IMG/VR virus record: IMGVR_UViG_3300032224_000723
Coordinates: 64,001-128,000 of that record
Direction: 5' to 3' (one strand)
Origin: a virus
DNA: 64,000 nt
In this document: piece by piece, positions 4,881-20,217 of the stretch
How the letters are laid out: every line of letters begins with the position of its first letter
Numbering within the stretch: position 1 is the first letter of the stretch
Made by a program: the position numbers and the translations under genes
Notes under the pieces: generated by a model
The model's input: only the letters and a program-made list of their open reading frames with translations
The model's database searches: none
Told to the model about the DNA's origin: nothing

Positions 4881-5572
4881 TGCCCAGGATACATGCTCCT
4901 CATTATGAGTATTGGATTCACAAAGGACATACATTTGGCCAATGTTTACATGGACCAGTTGGATCATCCGGATATTCTAATTACATACCAATACCTAAAT
5001 GTGGGAGCACCTGGGTTAATATCGTACTGTTTCATAGTTTAAATTGGCAAGTAGGTAACATCTATACAGATCCAGGTTTAGGTGAGCCTGGTGGGCTGGG
5101 GCTAAGCCACAATAGAAATTTAGTAGTATTGAGAGAACCTATTGAAAGATGGCTGTCAGGTATTGCTGAATACAGTTACAGATATCATGATCGAGATTTT
5201 ATAAACAATTTAAACAAACAAACATTAGATTTGATTTTTGATAGAGTAGCACTAGACGACCACACAGAAAAGCAAGTATACTACTGTCATGGATTACATC
5301 GATATCGGAGTTTATTTTTTCGTTGTGACTCGACATTAATTGAATTGTTTACGCAGTTCCTTACCAGTAACGGTGTAGACATAGATACCAGCAAAATACC
5401 GCCCGCTAATGTAACAGCAACAGATCAATATAAATTATCAATCAAAGAAACATTCCGTAATATCATAGAGAACGATATAAAATATAAAAACAAGTTAATA
5501 GATTATTTCAAAGCAGACTTTGATCTAATAGACAGCATAAATTTTTACCCACTAGACAATGAGAATAGATAA
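4880..5572 (+). CDS. Sulfotransferase family protein
   Basis: 5'-PSB-like IPIPKCGST; 3'-PB-like LREPIERWLSG; C-terminal YFKADFDL. Confidence 0.75.
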   Translation: MPRIHAPHYEYWIHKGHTFGQCLHGPVGSSGYSNYIPIPKCGSTWVNIVLFHSLNWQVGNIYTDPGLGEPGGLGLSHNRNLVVLREPIERWLSGIAEYSYRYHDRDFINNLNKQTLDLIFDRVALDDHTEKQVYYCHGLHRYRSLFFRCDSTLIELFTQFLTSNGVDIDTSKIPPANVTATDQYKLSIKETFRNIIENDIKYKNKLIDYFKADFDLIDSINFYPLDNENR

Positions 5573-7112
5573 CTTAACCAATAAACAAAGCGACTATGCA
5601 GTGTTCTTACCTGCACTAAGTAGCTTCTATGGCACTTACGTAGGCAAGCAACGACATGATCCTAATTTCATAGATAAAAACCGTATACCTGCAGACTTTG
5701 AAAACGGCATCGAAGGTATGAATTGGCTTAATGCAGATGCCGCATACTTTCCTTATAAGTGGACATTGTACAGTGCAGGGCATGCGAATCTAGATGTAAA
5801 CAAATTTGATGCCAAAGAAGATATGATTCGCAATCGCGACCCAAATACATTTATGTTGGGCGACAGCGGCGGATTTCAAATTGGTAAAGGTATATGGGAA
5901 GGCGATTGGAAGGATCCTAATTGTCCCAAGGCTGCTAAAAAACGAGCGCAAGTGCTGAGTTGGTTAGATGCATATTCAGATCGCGGAATGATCCTTGACA
6001 TTCCTGCGTGGGTCACACGCAGTCCTGCAGGCAGACGTGCTACTGGTATTACCACATATCAAGAAGCCGTAGATGCCACATACATCAACAATGAATACTT
6101 TATGAAGAATCGCACAGGTCGTTGCAAATTCTTAAATGTATTACAAGGCGACAATCATACTGATGCAGACGATTGGTATGACCGTATGAAGAAGTATTGT
6201 GATCCCAAACAGTATGCACAGCCTTTTGAAGGTTGGGCCATGGGAGGCCAAAATATGTGTGACATACATCTAGTGTTACGCAGACTAGTAGCACTACGTT
6301 TTGATGGATTGTTGGAATCTGGATTACATGATTGGATGCACTTTCTTGGTACAAGTAAATTAGAATGGGCTACATTGTTAACAGATATACAACGTGCAAT
6401 TCGCAAACATCACAATCCTACATTTACAATTAGCTTTGATTGTGCTAGCCCATTCCTTGCCACAGCCAATGGACAAATTTATTACGATGTGACCACTGAA
6501 GATAGAACTAAGTGGAGCTATCGTATGCAAGGTAGTGTAGATGATAAAAAATATGCCGCTGATACACGTAACTTTGGTGATGTATTGATGCAGGACAAAA
6601 TATTTGATTCGTTCTTACAAAGTCCTATTAGCGAGCGTATGCAAATCAAAGATGTTTGTGTGTACAAGCCTGGAGATCTAAATAAAATTGGTAAAGAAGG
6701 CAAAACATCATGGGATAGCTTTAGTTATGCATTGCAAATGGGCCATAATGTTTGGACACATATTCACGCAGTTCAGGAAGCAAATAGACAGTGTGATGCA
6801 GGTAAGTATCCAGAAATGTTAGTAGCAACAACTACAGACAAGAAAACATTCCGTCGTTACGATAGGAACTTTTTTAGAGATATTGTTGATGACATTTTTG
6901 CTACCAGTGACAGAGGCAAGGCTGAAGAACTAATTGAGCATTACAATAGATATTGGCTAAGTATTATTGGTACTCGAGGCGCAACAGGCAAAAAGACTTT
7001 TAACACCAGCACAGTGTTTAATGCATTGTTTGAACAAGATGCGCCCGAGGAACATCATATTGATGACAGCGGTTTAGATGAATCTAAATTAGACATTTTG
7101 GAGGCTGAATAA
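5559..7112 (+). CDS. dpdA: DpdA-like DNA 7-deazaguanine transglycosylase (TGT fold)
   Basis: TGT motifs DSGGFQ, MILDIP, NVLQG, WAMGG, HFLG, ISFDCAS; folE, queD and queE lie in the same region. Confidence 0.8.
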   Translation: MRIDNLTNKQSDYAVFLPALSSFYGTYVGKQRHDPNFIDKNRIPADFENGIEGMNWLNADAAYFPYKWTLYSAGHANLDVNKFDAKEDMIRNRDPNTFMLGDSGGFQIGKGIWEGDWKDPNCPKAAKKRAQVLSWLDAYSDRGMILDIPAWVTRSPAGRRATGITTYQEAVDATYINNEYFMKNRTGRCKFLNVLQGDNHTDADDWYDRMKKYCDPKQYAQPFEGWAMGGQNMCDIHLVLRRLVALRFDGLLESGLHDWMHFLGTSKLEWATLLTDIQRAIRKHHNPTFTISFDCASPFLATANGQIYYDVTTEDRTKWSYRMQGSVDDKKYAADTRNFGDVLMQDKIFDSFLQSPISERMQIKDVCVYKPGDLNKIGKEGKTSWDSFSYALQMGHNVWTHIHAVQEANRQCDAGKYPEMLVATTTDKKTFRRYDRNFFRDIVDDIFATSDRGKAEELIEHYNRYWLSIIGTRGATGKKTFNTSTVFNALFEQDAPEEHHIDDSGLDESKLDILEAE

Positions 7113-10288: not shown

Positions 10289-10817
10289 TACAAGTGGACG
10301 TCAACAAGTAGATTATTTTGTTGGCATTGAAGTAGAAAACACTGCAATGAAAGGCGAAAAGACTTTGTTTGTAGTAGGAGTTAAACCTGTAGACGAAATC
10401 ATTGAACTTGCAGAAAAACACGGTGTAAAACATTTATACTTCGGTACAAGCCAAAGTTTTCATCCACATAGTCCTTATGACTGGGCCGCATGGGATGACA
10501 TGATCAAACCTTTGTTGGTCAAAGACTATTGGGTTACACTGGACTTTGGTGTTGAATACTGTAAAGAAATTCACGAACAAGCATGGTGCGAATACAATAC
10601 GTTTATCCCCATGATCAGTGTTAAGATTCCTTACATTAAACTCTACAACTATAACGCCACAGTTAAAATTGATGACAACACTTGGGGCGACACTAATCCT
10701 GGTGTATGGTGCCACCCACTAAATGAACTACTGACCAGGAATGTATACACAGACTGGAAAGATTACACAGGAGATTTTCCTGTAACGCCAACACATAATG
10801 GAAGTGAAGAAGAATGA
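10278..10817 (+). CDS. Hypothetical protein within the deazaguanine cluster
   Basis: 179 aa ORF overlapping both neighbours; no motif recognised. Confidence 0.75.
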   Translation: MAIDTSGRQQVDYFVGIEVENTAMKGEKTLFVVGVKPVDEIIELAEKHGVKHLYFGTSQSFHPHSPYDWAAWDDMIKPLLVKDYWVTLDFGVEYCKEIHEQAWCEYNTFIPMISVKIPYIKLYNYNATVKIDDNTWGDTNPGVWCHPLNELLTRNVYTDWKDYTGDFPVTPTHNGSEEE

Positions 10818-11248
10818 ATCAAGAACAAAGAGCAACTGTAGATAGAATTATGGAAGCAGCCGACCGTAAAATATGGGTACGTTTCCAAAAAGAAGGAATC
10901 CATAAATACCCAGCGGCACTAGAAGAAGCCCACTTAGCAGATGTTGCGTTCCTTGGTTATCCTCATCGTCATATTTTCCATTTCCGGGTGTGGATTGATG
11001 TGTTCCACAACGACCGGGACGTGGAGTTCATCCAATTCAAACGCTGGTGCGAATCGCTGTATAACGGTGACAATTCCGTTCTAGCATTGGACTACAAGTC
11101 TTGCGAAATGATTGCAGATGACTTGTATGTACAAATTGCTGCCAAATATCCAGAACGCACAGTATGGATCGAAGTCAGCGAAGACAGTGAAAATGGTGCG
11201 TTGATAAAATACGAATTAACAAAACCCTACAACTCAATCAAAATTTAA
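10814..11248 (+). CDS. QueD-like T-fold protein (DpdL-like candidate CDG decarboxylase)
   Basis: LGYPHRHIF (LxxxHRHxF), VEFIQFK, SCEMIA, VSED..NGA are T-fold features; a canonical QueD is encoded separately. Confidence 0.65.
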   Translation: MNQEQRATVDRIMEAADRKIWVRFQKEGIHKYPAALEEAHLADVAFLGYPHRHIFHFRVWIDVFHNDRDVEFIQFKRWCESLYNGDNSVLALDYKSCEMIADDLYVQIAAKYPERTVWIEVSEDSENGALIKYELTKPYNSIKI

Positions 11249-13150: not shown

Positions 13151-13891
13151 ATGACAGAACCAGTATCAATAGATAACATAAACGACAAAGGTTATGAAAC
13201 AGGCTATTTAGGCGGCGCCATTCGTGCTAGAATGAAACGTGAAGGTAAACGTTTCTGGGCAGGCGACAACATTAGCGAATACGTCAAAGACGACTTTGAT
13301 AAAAACGAGCTTATTGAAGAAGCCACTCGAGCATTTGAAGGTGTGCTTGATGCATTACTTATTGATAGAGAAACAGATCCCAACAGCAAGGGCACAGCAC
13401 GCCGACTGGCCAAAATGTACTTTAACGAAATTATGGCAGGTAGATATGAACCAGCACCAGATGCAACAGCGTTTCCTAATGATAGTCAAGACCGTTATGA
13501 GGGTATGTTGGTGGTTAGGAGCGAGCTTCGCAGTATGTGTAGCCATCATCATCAGCCTGTGGCTGGTGTCGCTTATATTGGAATTATTGCCGCAAACAAG
13601 CTCATCGGATTGTCCAAGTACACACGTATTGCCCAATGGTGTGCTCGTAGAGGAACCCTACAGGAAGAACTGTGTAATGACATAGCCCGGGAAATTATGA
13701 AAGCCACAGACAGTGAAAGCGTTGGTGTTTATATTCAAGCAGTGCATGGTTGTTGCGAGAATCGAGGCATCATGGCACATAGTAGCTTAACACAAACTAC
13801 AGTACTAAAAGGTGCGTTTAACACTGACCCAGGTACGAAGAAGGAATTCTTCGACAACATCAAACTTCAACAAGATTTTGCACCACGTTAA
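13151..13891 (+). CDS. folE: GTP cyclohydrolase I
   Basis: SMCSHHHQP, IGLSKYTR, LQEEL, HGCCENRG. Confidence 0.95.
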   Translation: MTEPVSIDNINDKGYETGYLGGAIRARMKREGKRFWAGDNISEYVKDDFDKNELIEEATRAFEGVLDALLIDRETDPNSKGTARRLAKMYFNEIMAGRYEPAPDATAFPNDSQDRYEGMLVVRSELRSMCSHHHQPVAGVAYIGIIAANKLIGLSKYTRIAQWCARRGTLQEELCNDIAREIMKATDSESVGVYIQAVHGCCENRGIMAHSSLTQTTVLKGAFNTDPGTKKEFFDNIKLQQDFAPR

Positions 13892-17371: not shown

Positions 17372-17821
17372 ATGTTACTTAACCTTTTAGATAAACTGGG
17401 CCGTCGACGTATTGTCATGGACCGAGTCAACAATGAACCGTATTTGGAACGTTACTACGTGTTCTTGAAAGATCGTACTTGGTTTCCATTTAATGTATTC
17501 ATACACAAGTTTCTTAAAAGTGATCCCGACGATGTACACGATCATCCTTGGCCCTACGCTACACTTATCTTAAAAGGCGGATATTGGGAATGGATTCCAC
17601 AGTTTAACAGTCTTGGACAGAAGGTCGGTGAAATAGCAACATGGCGTGGCGCTGGTCACTTTCGTATTTGTAAAGCCAATAGTTTTCATCGTATCGAACT
17701 TGATCCCAATGTAACTGCATGGACATTGTTTATGCCAGGTATTAAACAACGTGAATGGGGCTTTTTAAGTAAAGGCCGTTGGATACAGTGGCAAAAATAT
17801 TTGGAGCTTAGAACAAAATGA
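17372..17821 (+). CDS. Cupin-fold protein
   Basis: HDHPW...GGYWE...FHRIEL..WTLF; AAGGAG SD. Confidence 0.7.
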   Translation: MLLNLLDKLGRRRIVMDRVNNEPYLERYYVFLKDRTWFPFNVFIHKFLKSDPDDVHDHPWPYATLILKGGYWEWIPQFNSLGQKVGEIATWRGAGHFRICKANSFHRIELDPNVTAWTLFMPGIKQREWGFLSKGRWIQWQKYLELRTK

Positions 17822-18159
17822 TTCAATTACCTCTAGGATGTACTGTTGTCTACGGCATTCGCATAGACATCGACAATTTATCAGCTGACATCATTGACTG
17901 GTATAAAACTGTTGGTGGTGTTATAACTGAAAGCAAACACTACAACCGTAGAGGTAACGAACACGTAACGACTTATGTACAATATGGTAAGTCAAAGAAA
18001 TGCCATTATCATCACAATGGTGGATCCAACGCTGTCAGACTTCATTTCCTCGGCGAGGATGCCAGTGTTGCTAGTATGTTCTTATTAAAGTTTATGGAAC
18101 ATGTAACTGATCACAATCTTAAGGAAGTAATGCACAGGATTGAGTACGATAAATACTAG
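17818..18159 (+). CDS. Hypothetical protein (possible F-x-L-K-W/F family member)
   Basis: Coupled ORF; DASVASMFLLKF. Confidence 0.65.
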   Translation: MIQLPLGCTVVYGIRIDIDNLSADIIDWYKTVGGVITESKHYNRRGNEHVTTYVQYGKSKKCHYHHNGGSNAVRLHFLGEDASVASMFLLKFMEHVTDHNLKEVMHRIEYDKY

Positions 18160-18167
18160 TTCAATCC

Positions 18168-18232
18168 AGCGGCCTCTGAGCATCATCCCGCTATACAAAT
18201 TCTGCTGCCTATGCTATAATTAACATAGGAGA
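18168..18232 (+). ncRNA. Candidate cis-regulatory RNA (pseudoknot plus SD-sequestering hairpin) upstream of queD
   Basis: AGCGG(18168)/CCGCT(18188) stem; loop AGCA can pair with TGCT(18203); CCTATG(18208)/CATAGG(18224) hairpin overlaps the AGGAG SD. Confidence 0.4.
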
Positions 18233-18237
18233 AAAGC

Positions 18238-18741
18238 ATGTCACTACAACCCGTATTATACAAATACACCAGCACTAAAGAATACCACGACGCATTTCCT
18301 TGCGCTTATCGTCAATGGCGAGCAGACAGTCATTGTAATTTGATACATGGCTATTCGTTTAGTATGAAATTTTACTTTGGTACAAATGATTTAGATGTTC
18401 GTAACTGGGCCGGCGACTATGGTGGACTTAAAGAACTTAAGAAGATACTGGAAGATCAATTTGACCATACATTGATTGTTGCACAAGATGATCCAGAGCT
18501 GGAGACATTTAAGTTGTTGCAAGAAAAGAACATGGCCAAGATTGTGGTACTGCCCAAACTAGGTTGCGAAGGACTTGCGGATCAACTCTACAAGTTTGTA
18601 AACGGTGTTTACATTCCTGACAACTGGGGTCCGGGCGAAGCAGAACGCTTATGGTGCTATCGTGTTGAGGTACGTGAGACACAGGCTAATATGGCATTCC
18701 GTGAAGGCCATCGTGAATGGAATGAGGACTTGTTTGCATGA
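18238..18741 (+). CDS. queD: 6-carboxy-5,6,7,8-tetrahydropterin synthase
   Basis: HCNLIHGY, DYGGLK, FDHT, GCEGLA, VRET. Confidence 0.9.
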   Translation: MSLQPVLYKYTSTKEYHDAFPCAYRQWRADSHCNLIHGYSFSMKFYFGTNDLDVRNWAGDYGGLKELKKILEDQFDHTLIVAQDDPELETFKLLQEKNMAKIVVLPKLGCEGLADQLYKFVNGVYIPDNWGPGEAERLWCYRVEVRETQANMAFREGHREWNEDLFA

Positions 18742-18862
18742 AACTATACAAACACAGCAACGGTAAACAAGTCTTTTCCCCGAGCATATCCCTAAAGGAT
18801 GGGAAGTTATGTTGAAGCCAACGACCTTTGAAATTGTATGGCGTAAGATTCGGAATAGATAA
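18738..18862 (+). pseudogene. Small frameshifted ORF (1 nt short of a 41-aa gene)
   Basis: ATGA-coupled start and TAATG-coupled stop are in different frames; shift near GGTAAACA. Confidence 0.5.
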
Positions 18863-19098
18863 TGACGCCAGAGCAACAGATCAAACTCGTTGAAGAACGG
18901 GCACGATTGCAAATAGAAGCCGCCGAAGCTGATCGAGATTATGCACTAGGTTTAGCAGCCGCGGCTCACTTGGAATTGATACAGGCCATAAAGTATGGAT
19001 TCAATCCCAAGTCCGCACACAGTACATTAATTAGTATTGGTAAGTTGAGCCCAAGACTAAATGCAATACGAGAAAAGATGTTGAGAGACAAAGAATGA
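18862..19098 (+). CDS. Hypothetical protein
   Basis: Coupled ORF. Confidence 0.65.
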   Translation: MTPEQQIKLVEERARLQIEAAEADRDYALGLAAAAHLELIQAIKYGFNPKSAHSTLISIGKLSPRLNAIREKMLRDKE

Positions 19099-19367
19099 AT
19101 TCAAAAATAGAAGAAGCATTAGGTATACTGCAAGAAGAATGTGCAGAAGTTATTGTAGAAGTCAGCAAGTGCCGTAGGTTTGGTATTGACAGCGTACACT
19201 ACAAAACTGGCATCGAACACTCCAAAATGCTTGAGTTGGAAGTAGGAGATGTGTTAGCATTAATAGATATTCTTGTTGAGCAAGGCGTTTTAAATACAGC
19301 AGTATTAGACATTGCCAAAGCAAACAAAAAAGAAAAACTTAAACAGTGGTCAAAAATTTATGAGTAA
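19095..19367 (+). CDS. MazG-like nucleotide pyrophosphohydrolase
   Basis: LQEECAEV...LELEVGDVL (EExxE...ExxD). Confidence 0.75.
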   Translation: MNSKIEEALGILQEECAEVIVEVSKCRRFGIDSVHYKTGIEHSKMLELEVGDVLALIDILVEQGVLNTAVLDIAKANKKEKLKQWSKIYE

Positions 19368-20217
19368 ACTTAAAATATCAGAATTGTTTTACAGCGCACA
19401 AGGCGAAGGTCGCTTTGTTGGTGTTCCCAGTGTGTTTCTACGCACGTACGGATGTAACTTTAAATGTGCAGGCTTTGGCTGCAAGCCCGGCGAACTCAGC
19501 ACAGAAGCAGATGAAGTAGCAAAGAACATTCATTTGTATAAAACATTTGAAGAACTACCTTTGGTCAATACCGGCTGTGACAGCTATGCTAGTTGGCATC
19601 CTGCATTTAAAGATCTAAGTCACACATATGACATTGATGAGATTGTTGTAAAAATGTTGGCCTTAACTCCCAATGGACGTTGGGTACAAAACAACGGCAA
19701 CGATGTACACTTAGTTATCACAGGTGGCGAACCTTTGCTAGGTTGGCAACGCAGTTATGAAGAACTACTAAGTCATCCCGGACTTGAAGATATTCGTAAC
19801 ATTACATTTGAAACTAATGGTACACAACCACTCAGTGACAAATTCAAAGCATTCTTAGATGAATGGTATACTCCTGATAAAGAAATCACATTCAGTGTGA
19901 GTCCCAAGTTAATTGCCAGCGGTGAGATGTGGAATGATGCTATCAAGCCAGAAGTTGTAATTGACTATCAAAGATATGGTCATACTTACTTGAAGTTTGT
20001 AGTAGAACATGCGGCACATTTTGATGAGGTAGACAATGCTGTGCGTGAATATAGACGTGCAGGATTTGAAATGACTGTGTTTGTTATGCCGCAAGGTGGT
20101 GTTGTAACTCCTTATGAAAAAAATCGTGTTAATGTTGCTAACTGGGCATTGGCCAGAGGTTATAACTATAGTCCACGGCTACACGTCGACTTGTGGGGCA
20201 ATGGCTGGGGTAAGTAA
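19360..20217 (+). CDS. queE: 7-carboxy-7-deazaguanine synthase (radical SAM)
   Basis: ELFYSAQGEG, VFLRTYGCNFKC...CDS, VITGGEP, FETNGT, SVSPK, PRLH; start ATG 19360. Confidence 0.93.
   Translation: MSKLKISELFYSAQGEGRFVGVPSVFLRTYGCNFKCAGFGCKPGELSTEADEVAKNIHLYKTFEELPLVNTGCDSYASWHPAFKDLSHTYDIDEIVVKMLALTPNGRWVQNNGNDVHLVITGGEPLLGWQRSYEELLSHPGLEDIRNITFETNGTQPLSDKFKAFLDEWYTPDKEITFSVSPKLIASGEMWNDAIKPEVVIDYQRYGHTYLKFVVEHAAHFDEVDNAVREYRRAGFEMTVFVMPQGGVVTPYEKNRVNVANWALARGYNYSPRLHVDLWGNGWGK

Follow-up and report, generated by a model that had tools for sequence, protein, structure and literature searches.

A conserved H-type pseudoknot leader upstream of queD in uncultured T4-like phages, a candidate translational riboswitch

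Riboswitches of class I for pre-queuosine 1 (preQ1) are H-type pseudoknots in which a G-C floor pair closes the first helix (P1), a strictly conserved cytosine located directly before the 3' strand of P1 pairs with the ligand and is itself preceded by U in type I and by A in types II and III, the first loop (L1) contributes a U, an A-rich third loop (L3) occupies the minor groove of P1, and bases of the Shine-Dalgarno (SD) sequence lie within the second helix, P2 (PMC11625349). Riboswitches are reported to be rare in phages, and the authors of a census have suggested that phages may use undiscovered classes (PMC5473149). The leader described here precedes a queD-like gene in a stretch of 64,000 nucleotides of viral DNA (IMG/VR record IMGVR_UViG_3300032224_000723, positions 64,001 to 128,000), which is referred to below as the window and whose own numbering is used throughout. 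This leader is a real and strongly supported structured element, and on balance it is probably a cis-acting ligand-sensing RNA, that is, a candidate riboswitch built on an H-type pseudoknot and acting as a translational ON switch.

The leader fills a gap of 78 nt (18160-18237), devoid of any open reading frame (ORF) of at least 40 aa on both strands, between the ORF at 17818-18159 and queD (18238-18741, plus strand); the SD sequence AGGAG (18227-18231) and the ATG start codon (18238-18240) of queD together span 18227-18240 on the plus strand, on which all features of the leader are found. P1 is formed by the 5' strand AGCGG (18168-18172) and the 3' strand CCGCT (18188-18192), which enclose a loop of 15 nt (18173-18187). 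This loop is composed of L1 (CCUCU, 18173-18177), consisting of a variable first base, an invariant C, a near-invariant U and a spacer of variable length, of the P2 5' strand (18178-18185: G18178, the bulged A18179, G18180, C18181, A18182, the mismatched U18183, C18184 and A18185), and of the second loop, L2 (UC, 18186-18187), whose C18187 immediately precedes the P1 3' strand and is the candidate cytosine for ligand specificity. The A-rich L3 (AUACAAAUUC, 18193-18202) includes the linker ATACAAAT (18193-18200) and ends with an invariant UC; it is followed by the P2 3' strand (18203-18209), which comprises a UG that pairs with CA, the mismatched C18205, and the UGCC of the distal P2 helix, the invariant TCTGC of the family being located at 18201-18205. 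The resulting P2 pairs are U18203-A18185, G18204-C18184, U18206-A18182, G18207-C18181, C18208-G18180 and C18209-G18178, with C18205 opposite U18183 and A18179 bulged. A hairpin (18208-18229) that pairs CCUAUG (18208-18213) with CAUAGG (18224-18229) masks the SD, and the two C with which it starts are shared with P2, so that CC 18208-18209 can pair with either the GG of the loop or the GG of the SD. Folded alone, the leader of the window is no more stable than chance would have it (minimum free energy of -15.6 kcal/mol, versus -14.9 +/- 2.9 for shuffled sequences; z = -0.26), and the support for the structure is comparative rather than derived from single-sequence folding. A preliminary description of this DNA had listed the 78-nt gap, the stem with its 15-nt loop, the A-rich linker, a TGCT (18203-18206) complementary to a loop AGCA (18179-18182), and the hairpin burying the AGG of the SD; all the motifs it listed are present in the sequence, with some of its coordinates being off by one.

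The comparison of homologous queD leaders that the same description had proposed was performed on a MAFFT alignment of 149 distinct aptamer sequences, in which both P1 and P2 covary, clearly at odds with the lack of conservation or covariation that the description had named as grounds for rejection. P1 is paired in 99.5% of the alignment cells and contains three covarying pairs, with the compensatory types AU/UA (129/17), GC/CG (134/12) and CG/AU (139/8), while its two top G-C pairs are invariant; RNAalifold recovers P1 independently. P2 was first counted as five pairs, of which 84.6% of cells were paired and four pairs changed on both sides. An invariant CA in the loop and an invariant UG in the tail, apart from the three sequences described below, always sit one mismatch (U opposite C) away from this distal helix, and P2 extended by CA/UG is 89.3% paired and shows double changes at five of its seven pairs. 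Its overall covariation amounts to 0.225, versus 0.066 +/- 0.005 for shuffled alignments (0/500), and the value is 0.02-0.06 in a control in which the partners were moved by one to three columns. In three distinct sequences that differ in P1 or in the loop, CG/CG takes the place of CA/UG, and a mismatch never occurs at these pairs; pair 25-44 is AU in 146 sequences and GC in three, and is unpaired in none; pair 22-47 is UA in 69, AU in 30, GC in 13 and CG in 12; and all four Watson-Crick types are found at the distal P2 pair nearest to the mismatch. An anchored analysis of 164 distinct aptamers, fixed on the invariant bases and free of the gaps introduced by MAFFT, gave a mean of 3.91 contiguous base pairs for the distal part of P2, versus 3.07 +/- 0.085 after the tails had been exchanged among sequences.

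Conservation extends to unpaired positions. Residues A18195, A18197, A18199, U18201 and C18202 are invariant in the MAFFT alignment, as is C10 of L1, and T11 is conserved in at least 90% of the sequences. The C adjoining the P1 3' strand on its 5' side is likewise invariant (149/149), and the base that precedes it is U in 121, C in 21 and A in 18 cases. The first base of L1 varies (U 62, C 60, A 42), the two that follow (C, U) are invariant or nearly so, and the length of the P1 loop ranges from 13 to 19 nt across the family. The H-type pseudoknot proposed in the preliminary description is therefore upheld by covariation in the 149 leaders, but in another register than the TGCT/AGCA pairing given for it, the P2 of the family being located 3 nt further downstream. 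TGCT/AGCA was rejected as the P2 of the family: the AGCA is absent from the loops of most members and the covariation sits in the other register. The pairing of CAGCGG (18167-18172) with CUGCUG (18202-18207), found in the minimum free energy structure of the window, was likewise rejected as a family feature because the P1 5' strand varies (AGAGG, ACCGG, UGCGG, AGUGG) without any accompanying change in the invariant UCUGC.

About 270 phage contigs in IMG/VR carry the element directly upstream of queD, and their QueD proteins are 32-95% identical to that of the window. More than 594 stretches in this database encode a close QueD, and the same leader was found in nearly all of the best 80 that had enough upstream sequence. 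A degenerate pattern of L2, the P1 3' strand and L3 occurred in at least 119 IMG/VR contigs, with a queD homologue immediately downstream in 116 of the 119 listed, and the QueD subfamilies matched by this pattern include ones that are only 32-60% identical to the protein of the window. A covariance model of the phage element (R1) detected it with 40-70 bits at 78 of 80 loci for a QueD type of 175 aa (approximately 32% identical to that of the window), where the element ends 20-85 nt before the queD start. The two exceptions are a truncated locus and L420 (region 1380-1520), whose queD (73% identical to the L101 type) is leaderless and translationally coupled to the preceding ORF; the element is therefore dispensable in some phages. 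The 156,993-nt record to which the window belongs contains a single R1 match (62.6 bits, window positions 18165-18214), and one copy each is present in five further records of 229-354 kb, two of which are 98-100% complete according to CheckV and two of which encode a T4-type Gp23. With T4-type Gp23 in relatives, the carrier phages are T4-like.

Outside these uncultured phages the element is scarce. When 50,697 records of isolated phages were searched at the DNA level with 1 kb of sequence and with the 76-nt leader, only chance matches were obtained (E >= 2), and among the proteins of cultured phages none exceeds 52% identity to the QueD of the window. In prokaryote genomes (596 Gb, one per species) the frequency of the pattern was about that predicted by chance, and the full motif was present in 2 of the 120 matches listed, namely L255 (a 5.8-kb contig of a Bacteroidetes metagenome-assembled genome) and L322. 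Two variations on the usual arrangement were observed among the phage contigs. In L414-L417 the 5' half of a second aptamer (approximately 797-822, 20 bits), comprising P1 and its loop and lacking L3 and the P2 3' strand, is located approximately 700 nt upstream of the full copy and has its own TATAAT before it; this half copy looks like the remnant of a duplication or recombination. In L083, L088, L114, L117, L118 and L133, the QueD match starts 50-350 nt past the start codon controlled by the leader, and a small ORF or an N-terminal extension sits between the element and the QueD domain.

Downstream of TCTGC, the leaders were sorted by sequence into three classes that mask the ribosome-binding site in different ways. 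In class a (91 distinct leaders, including that of the window) CCUAUG pairs with CAUAGG and covers the AGG of the SD, in class b (44 distinct leaders) (U)G(C/U)C(A/G)UC pairs with GAUGGC(A) and covers the start codon, and in class c (25 distinct leaders) the start codon is covered by the pairing of GCCAUUG(U/C) with (A)CAAUGGC. The mask is 99% paired in class a (87 leaders) and 97% paired in classes b and c, with outliers represented by CCUAUA/UAUAGG in L134 and L192 and by CUCUAUU/AAUAGAG in L171; these three independent sequence solutions and the few outliers support the mask. In every class the start of its 5' arm falls within the P2 3' strand (overlap of 2-4 nt), and P2 and the mask are therefore mutually exclusive.

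To model the effect of this overlap, partition functions were computed with P1 imposed as a constraint, and the strands of P2 were then barred from pairing to stand in for the pseudoknot. The probability that the SD and AUG are unpaired rose from 0.36 with P2 free to 0.52 with P2 blocked in class a, from 0.14 to 0.43 in class b, and from 0.42 to 0.63 in class c, the leader of the window going from 0.34 to 0.57. The increase exceeded 0.1 in 119 of the 162 leaders, a decrease was seen in two, and blocking L3 as a control left the accessibility of the SD and AUG unchanged. The overlap between P2 and the mask thus gives a predicted translational ON logic, a point absent from the preliminary description. 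With calculated energies in the window of -5.3 kcal/mol for P1, -5.8 kcal/mol for the masking hairpin and -2 to -4.5 kcal/mol for the P2 duplex, a ligand that contributes a few kcal/mol upon binding could shift the equilibrium.

Promoter-like motifs flank the aptamer and, in one class, overlap it. A T4-late-type motif, GATAAATA, is present at 18148-18155 (plus strand), as had been pointed out in the preliminary description, with a predicted transcription start approximately 5-7 nt before P1, and TAA[AG]TA is found 3-20 nt 5' of P1 in 76 of the 91 class a leaders. The sequence ATAAATA is depleted about three-fold in the window (seven occurrences versus 24.4 +/- 5.1 expected, one of the seven preceding P1), which would be in keeping with a motif that serves as a late promoter and is shunned at other sites; since the phages are T4-like, to regard the upstream motif as a putative T4-type late promoter is reasonable. 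In class c, a TTGACx-16/17-TATAAT arrangement ends exactly 7 nt before P1 in 17 of the 25 leaders, and the same arrangement is found in 14 of the 44 leaders of class b. Judged by these motifs, the aptamer stands at the very start of the predicted transcript.

A second candidate promoter, of the sigma-70 type, is embedded in the leader of the window (18192-18220, plus strand) and is composed of a -35-like TATACA (18192-18197), a 17-nt spacer, a TGc (18212-18214) and the -10 hexamer TATAAT (18215-18220); this promoter, whose extended -10 is TGCTATAAT (18212-18220), scored 10/12 with TG in a promoter scan. Of the 91 leaders of class a, 86 keep TGnTAnnnT, the variation being confined to -10 positions 3-5, which are weakly conserved, and the L3 cytosine (ACAAA) that makes the -35 TT(T/A)ACA is present in 86/91 leaders of class a versus 7/69 of classes b and c, which have a U there. 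No credible -10 was found in the class b and c leaders (n = 69). Class a thus probably has a genuine sigma-70 promoter within its expression platform, from which transcription would start near 18227, leaving the SD at the extreme 5' end of a short transcript that would lack the 5' arm of the hairpin. The preliminary description had offered this extended -10 as an alternative to a switch. The promoter itself is likely, given its retention in class a, but it has to be considered as an additional feature of one subclass rather than as an alternative, because classes b and c keep the pseudoknot without such a -10.

The aptamer is thus composed of a P1 of 5 bp, L1, a two-part P2, an L2 of two nucleotides (UC) and an A-rich L3, and the invariant residues (the top G-C pair of P1, the C before the P1 3' strand, the CU of L1, the adenines of L3, and the CA/UG pairs of P2) gather at the P1/P2 junction, the site that accommodates the ligand in class I preQ1 riboswitches. 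In the mechanism that we propose, when the ligand is absent, the masking hairpin would form and queD would be poorly translated. When it is bound, the pseudoknot would keep the P2 bases, the hairpin would lose its G-C pairs, and the SD would be exposed. In the subclass of the window, the embedded sigma-70-type promoter would probably add a short unregulated transcript. Invariant bases at positions resembling the preQ1-I pocket make a ligand with a guanine-like Watson-Crick face the most likely one, and on this analogy the most likely candidates would be guanine, a base of the 7-deazaguanine type, or a FolE/QueD pathway pterin. It is speculation that the ON logic suits a substrate or signal, e.g. 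the product of FolE, better than an end product. More specifically, the element might represent a new riboswitch class of giant T4-like phages that has the pocket architecture of preQ1-I, binds a ligand new to riboswitches (7-carboxy-7-deazaguanine (CDG), 7-deazaguanine or dihydroneopterin triphosphate, the substrate of QueD) and switches on the translation of a DNA-hypermodification enzyme, a proposal that we put forward tentatively and consider possible rather than probable.

Several points weigh against a ligand-sensing ON switch. An ON switch is unusual on a biosynthetic gene, and to our knowledge all known preQ1 riboswitches are OFF switches. The covariation counts carry no correction for phylogeny, the mask helices change within classes in a one-sided, wobble-compatible manner with no double compensatory changes, and the accessibility model represents the pseudoknot through blocked bases only. 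In the window itself P2 is weak (a bulged duplex of approximately -2 to -4.5 kcal/mol), and the alternative register TGCT/AGCA is possible and, as a bare duplex, marginally favored (-2.5 versus -1.9 kcal/mol for the family register). With P2 engaged, the window can furthermore form UAUGCU/AGCAUG (18210-18215 with 18235-18240) over the start codon, a helix that could, according to the folding model, blunt the ON effect there; it needs a GCAUG start context, which is found in only part of class a. A cultured carrier of the element was, moreover, not found among the isolated phage records searched.

Known RNA families did not account for the element. A cmscan of the window with Rfam 15 (4227 models, permissive filters, E <= 10), a set that includes preQ1-II, preQ1-III, SAM-II/V, fluoride and guanidine-III, gave no match in the gap and three chance matches to eukaryotic RNAs elsewhere. 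The preliminary description had noted that the loop departs from the preQ1 consensus, and the search with the preQ1-I model RF00522 agrees: the element was not matched at E <= 10 in the window (17500-19000), in its own 157-kb record or in five other carriers, and all matches of the model in these records are located elsewhere and score under 13 bits, the gathering score being 39 bits. As a control, RF00522 retrieved genuine aptamers in three Bacillota genomes with 42-52 bits. On genuine preQ1-I aptamers R1 gave, with filters off, 5.6-8.2 bits, and in three of seven genuine loci this weak match falls exactly on the type II aptamer; an identity of 13 nt, AGAGG...CCCUCUAUAAAAA, is common to genuine type II aptamers and some members of the phage family. 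No published description of the element was found in the literature.

These comparisons bear on the possibility that the element is an ordinary, divergent member of preQ1-I that binds preQ1 or preQ0 and turns queD off. The element has the topology, gene family context, floor pair, specificity C and A-rich L3 of this class, and the 13-nt identity of some members and the weak R1 matches on three genuine aptamers point in the same direction. The silence of RF00522, the position of the SD outside P2 and 18-35 nt downstream of it, the longer L1, P2 and L3 with invariant bases of their own, and a P2 that competes with the mask of the ribosome-binding site and so predicts an ON switch all make this reading very improbable. 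The idea that conservation acts at the level of DNA only, on promoters or a protein-binding site, with RNA structure being irrelevant, draws on the presence in the window of good sigma-70-like hexamers across L3 and the hairpin loop; it is hardly credible in view of the compensatory double changes in P1 and P2, which preserve pairing while altering sequence, of the strand specificity of the element, which in all cases precedes queD and follows a promoter, and of the lack of the -10 in classes b and c.

The pseudoknot could also act as a translational operator bound by protein, with QueD or another phage protein shifting the balance between P2 and the sequestor. Several RNA operators are in use among T4-like phages, to which the carriers belong, and in T4 a 5' pseudoknot in the leader of gene 32 nucleates the autoregulation by gp32; the structure, its conservation and its wiring to the mask would suit a protein ligand equally well. 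We nevertheless give this explanation a minor, if real, chance, since the element is kept before QueD subfamilies that are only 32-60% identical, so that QueD could regulate its own synthesis only through an RNA-binding surface of very high conservation, and since the aptamer is tiny (approximately 42 nt), with invariant bases exactly at the positions of the preQ1-I ligand pocket and conserved bases that are single-stranded, as is typical of metabolite pockets. A structured leader that works independently of any ligand, by setting a fixed level of translation, mRNA stability or a temperature response, and whose timing would depend solely on the choice between an upstream promoter, late-type or sigma-70, and the internal sigma-70 promoter that circumvents the hairpin, has its precedent in T4, where the choice of promoter in combination with a hairpin masking the ribosome-binding site sets the timing of gene e, soc and I-TevI. 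The internal TGnTAnnnT with its matching -35 in 86 of the 91 class a leaders, and the hairpin over the SD, fit such a device. It is nonetheless unlikely, as the 69 distinct leaders of classes b and c keep the pseudoknot and the mask without a convincing internal promoter, and as a static leader needs neither invariant unpaired bases at the junction nor an exclusivity of P2 and sequestor kept in three versions. A ligand-sensing ON switch is the explanation that we favor.

The gene under the control of the leader encodes a QueD-like 6-pyruvoyl-tetrahydropterin/6-carboxy-tetrahydropterin (CPH4) synthase (Pfam PTPS, 2.2e-13; PHROG 2389, QueD-like, 4e-35). FolE (13151-13891; Pfam, 9.8e-39) and a QueE-like protein (19312-20217; PHROG 2076, 3.3e-51) are encoded in the window as well. 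Neither a convincing Pfam QueC nor a Pfam TGT was found in the own record of the window or in the 98-100% complete relatives of 353-354 kb that carry the element (whole records G000, G006, G007, G008 and G009 screened), which leaves CDG or one of its derivatives as a possible end point of the pathway. This gene content suggests a 7-deazaguanine pathway without QueC, in which DpdA is very divergent or absent. Two genes upstream of queD, the ORF at 17372-17821 matches PHROG 4786, 'cysteine dioxygenase' (6e-36), a second small T-fold-like ORF (10814-11248) matches PHROG 17812, of unknown function (3e-36), and an ORF of 517 aa (5559-7112) has no match in Pfam and PHROG at E <= 0.001.

The candidate riboswitch is present in hundreds of phage genomes. 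If the proposed function is true, the smallest known riboswitch fold would gain an ON wiring, with P2 serving as anti-sequestor, and perhaps a new ligand; phages would regulate the 7-deazaguanine modification of their DNA by metabolite sensing, and the element would be the first widespread phage-encoded sensor of a metabolite for their own DNA-modification pathway. As an RNA of approximately 45-75 nt with a simple predicted logic, it makes the hypothesis directly testable in vitro and in E. coli reporters, and the aptamer could be used as a compact sensor part.

Among known systems, the hairpin and promoter devices of T4 (genes e, soc and I-TevI) resemble the phage leader in that a promoter, a candidate one in the leader described here, is situated within a hairpin masking the ribosome-binding site, and that the transcript made from it would be devoid of the 5' arm; the leader of T4 gene 32 likewise has its pseudoknot at the very 5' end. 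In contrast to the T4 timing devices, the inner promoter is here sigma-70-like and the outer one late-like, which is the reverse of the order in T4, and a covarying pseudoknot, whose invariant bases recall a ligand pocket, is linked to the hairpin. The adenine riboswitch of Vibrio vulnificus add is a translational ON switch with a sequestor/anti-sequestor platform. In this and other translational ON riboswitches, aptamer pairing stabilized by the ligand strips bases from a helix masking the ribosome-binding site and frees the SD or AUG, as is predicted for the phage leader, but the add aptamer is a three-way junction, and its fold is unrelated to the pseudoknot described here.

The closest counterpart is preQ1-I (RF00522; types I-III, e.g. 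B. subtilis queC, T. tengcongensis, C. antarcticum and E. coli), which is likewise a small H-type pseudoknot in leaders of 7-deazaguanine pathway genes. Both have a 5-bp P1 with a conserved closing G-C pair, and in both the base immediately preceding the P1 3' strand is an invariant C, which in the phage element mostly follows a U (a likeness of position only); in both, too, P1 is followed by an A-rich L3 whose last base, adjoining the P2 3' strand, is C. Once P2 is extended, the L2 of the phage element consists of two bases, which fits the 'UC' motif. The phage element differs in its longer L1, P2 and L3 with their own invariant bases (UCUGC, UCAUC), in its two-part P2 (CA/UG, a U/C mismatch and a variable helix of 3-5 bp), in an SD located outside P2 and 18-35 nt downstream of it (18 nt in the window), and in a first L1 base that is variable instead of U, the register of L1 being possibly a different one. 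It is furthermore predicted to be an ON switch, unlike the known preQ1 classes, which are OFF switches, and it is almost confined to contigs of uncultured phages. Because RF00522 misses it in all records searched, the SD is not part of P2 and, subject to the register of L1, the first L1 base is not conserved, the element is set outside the curated family, and we read it as working like a preQ1-I aptamer while standing apart from that family.

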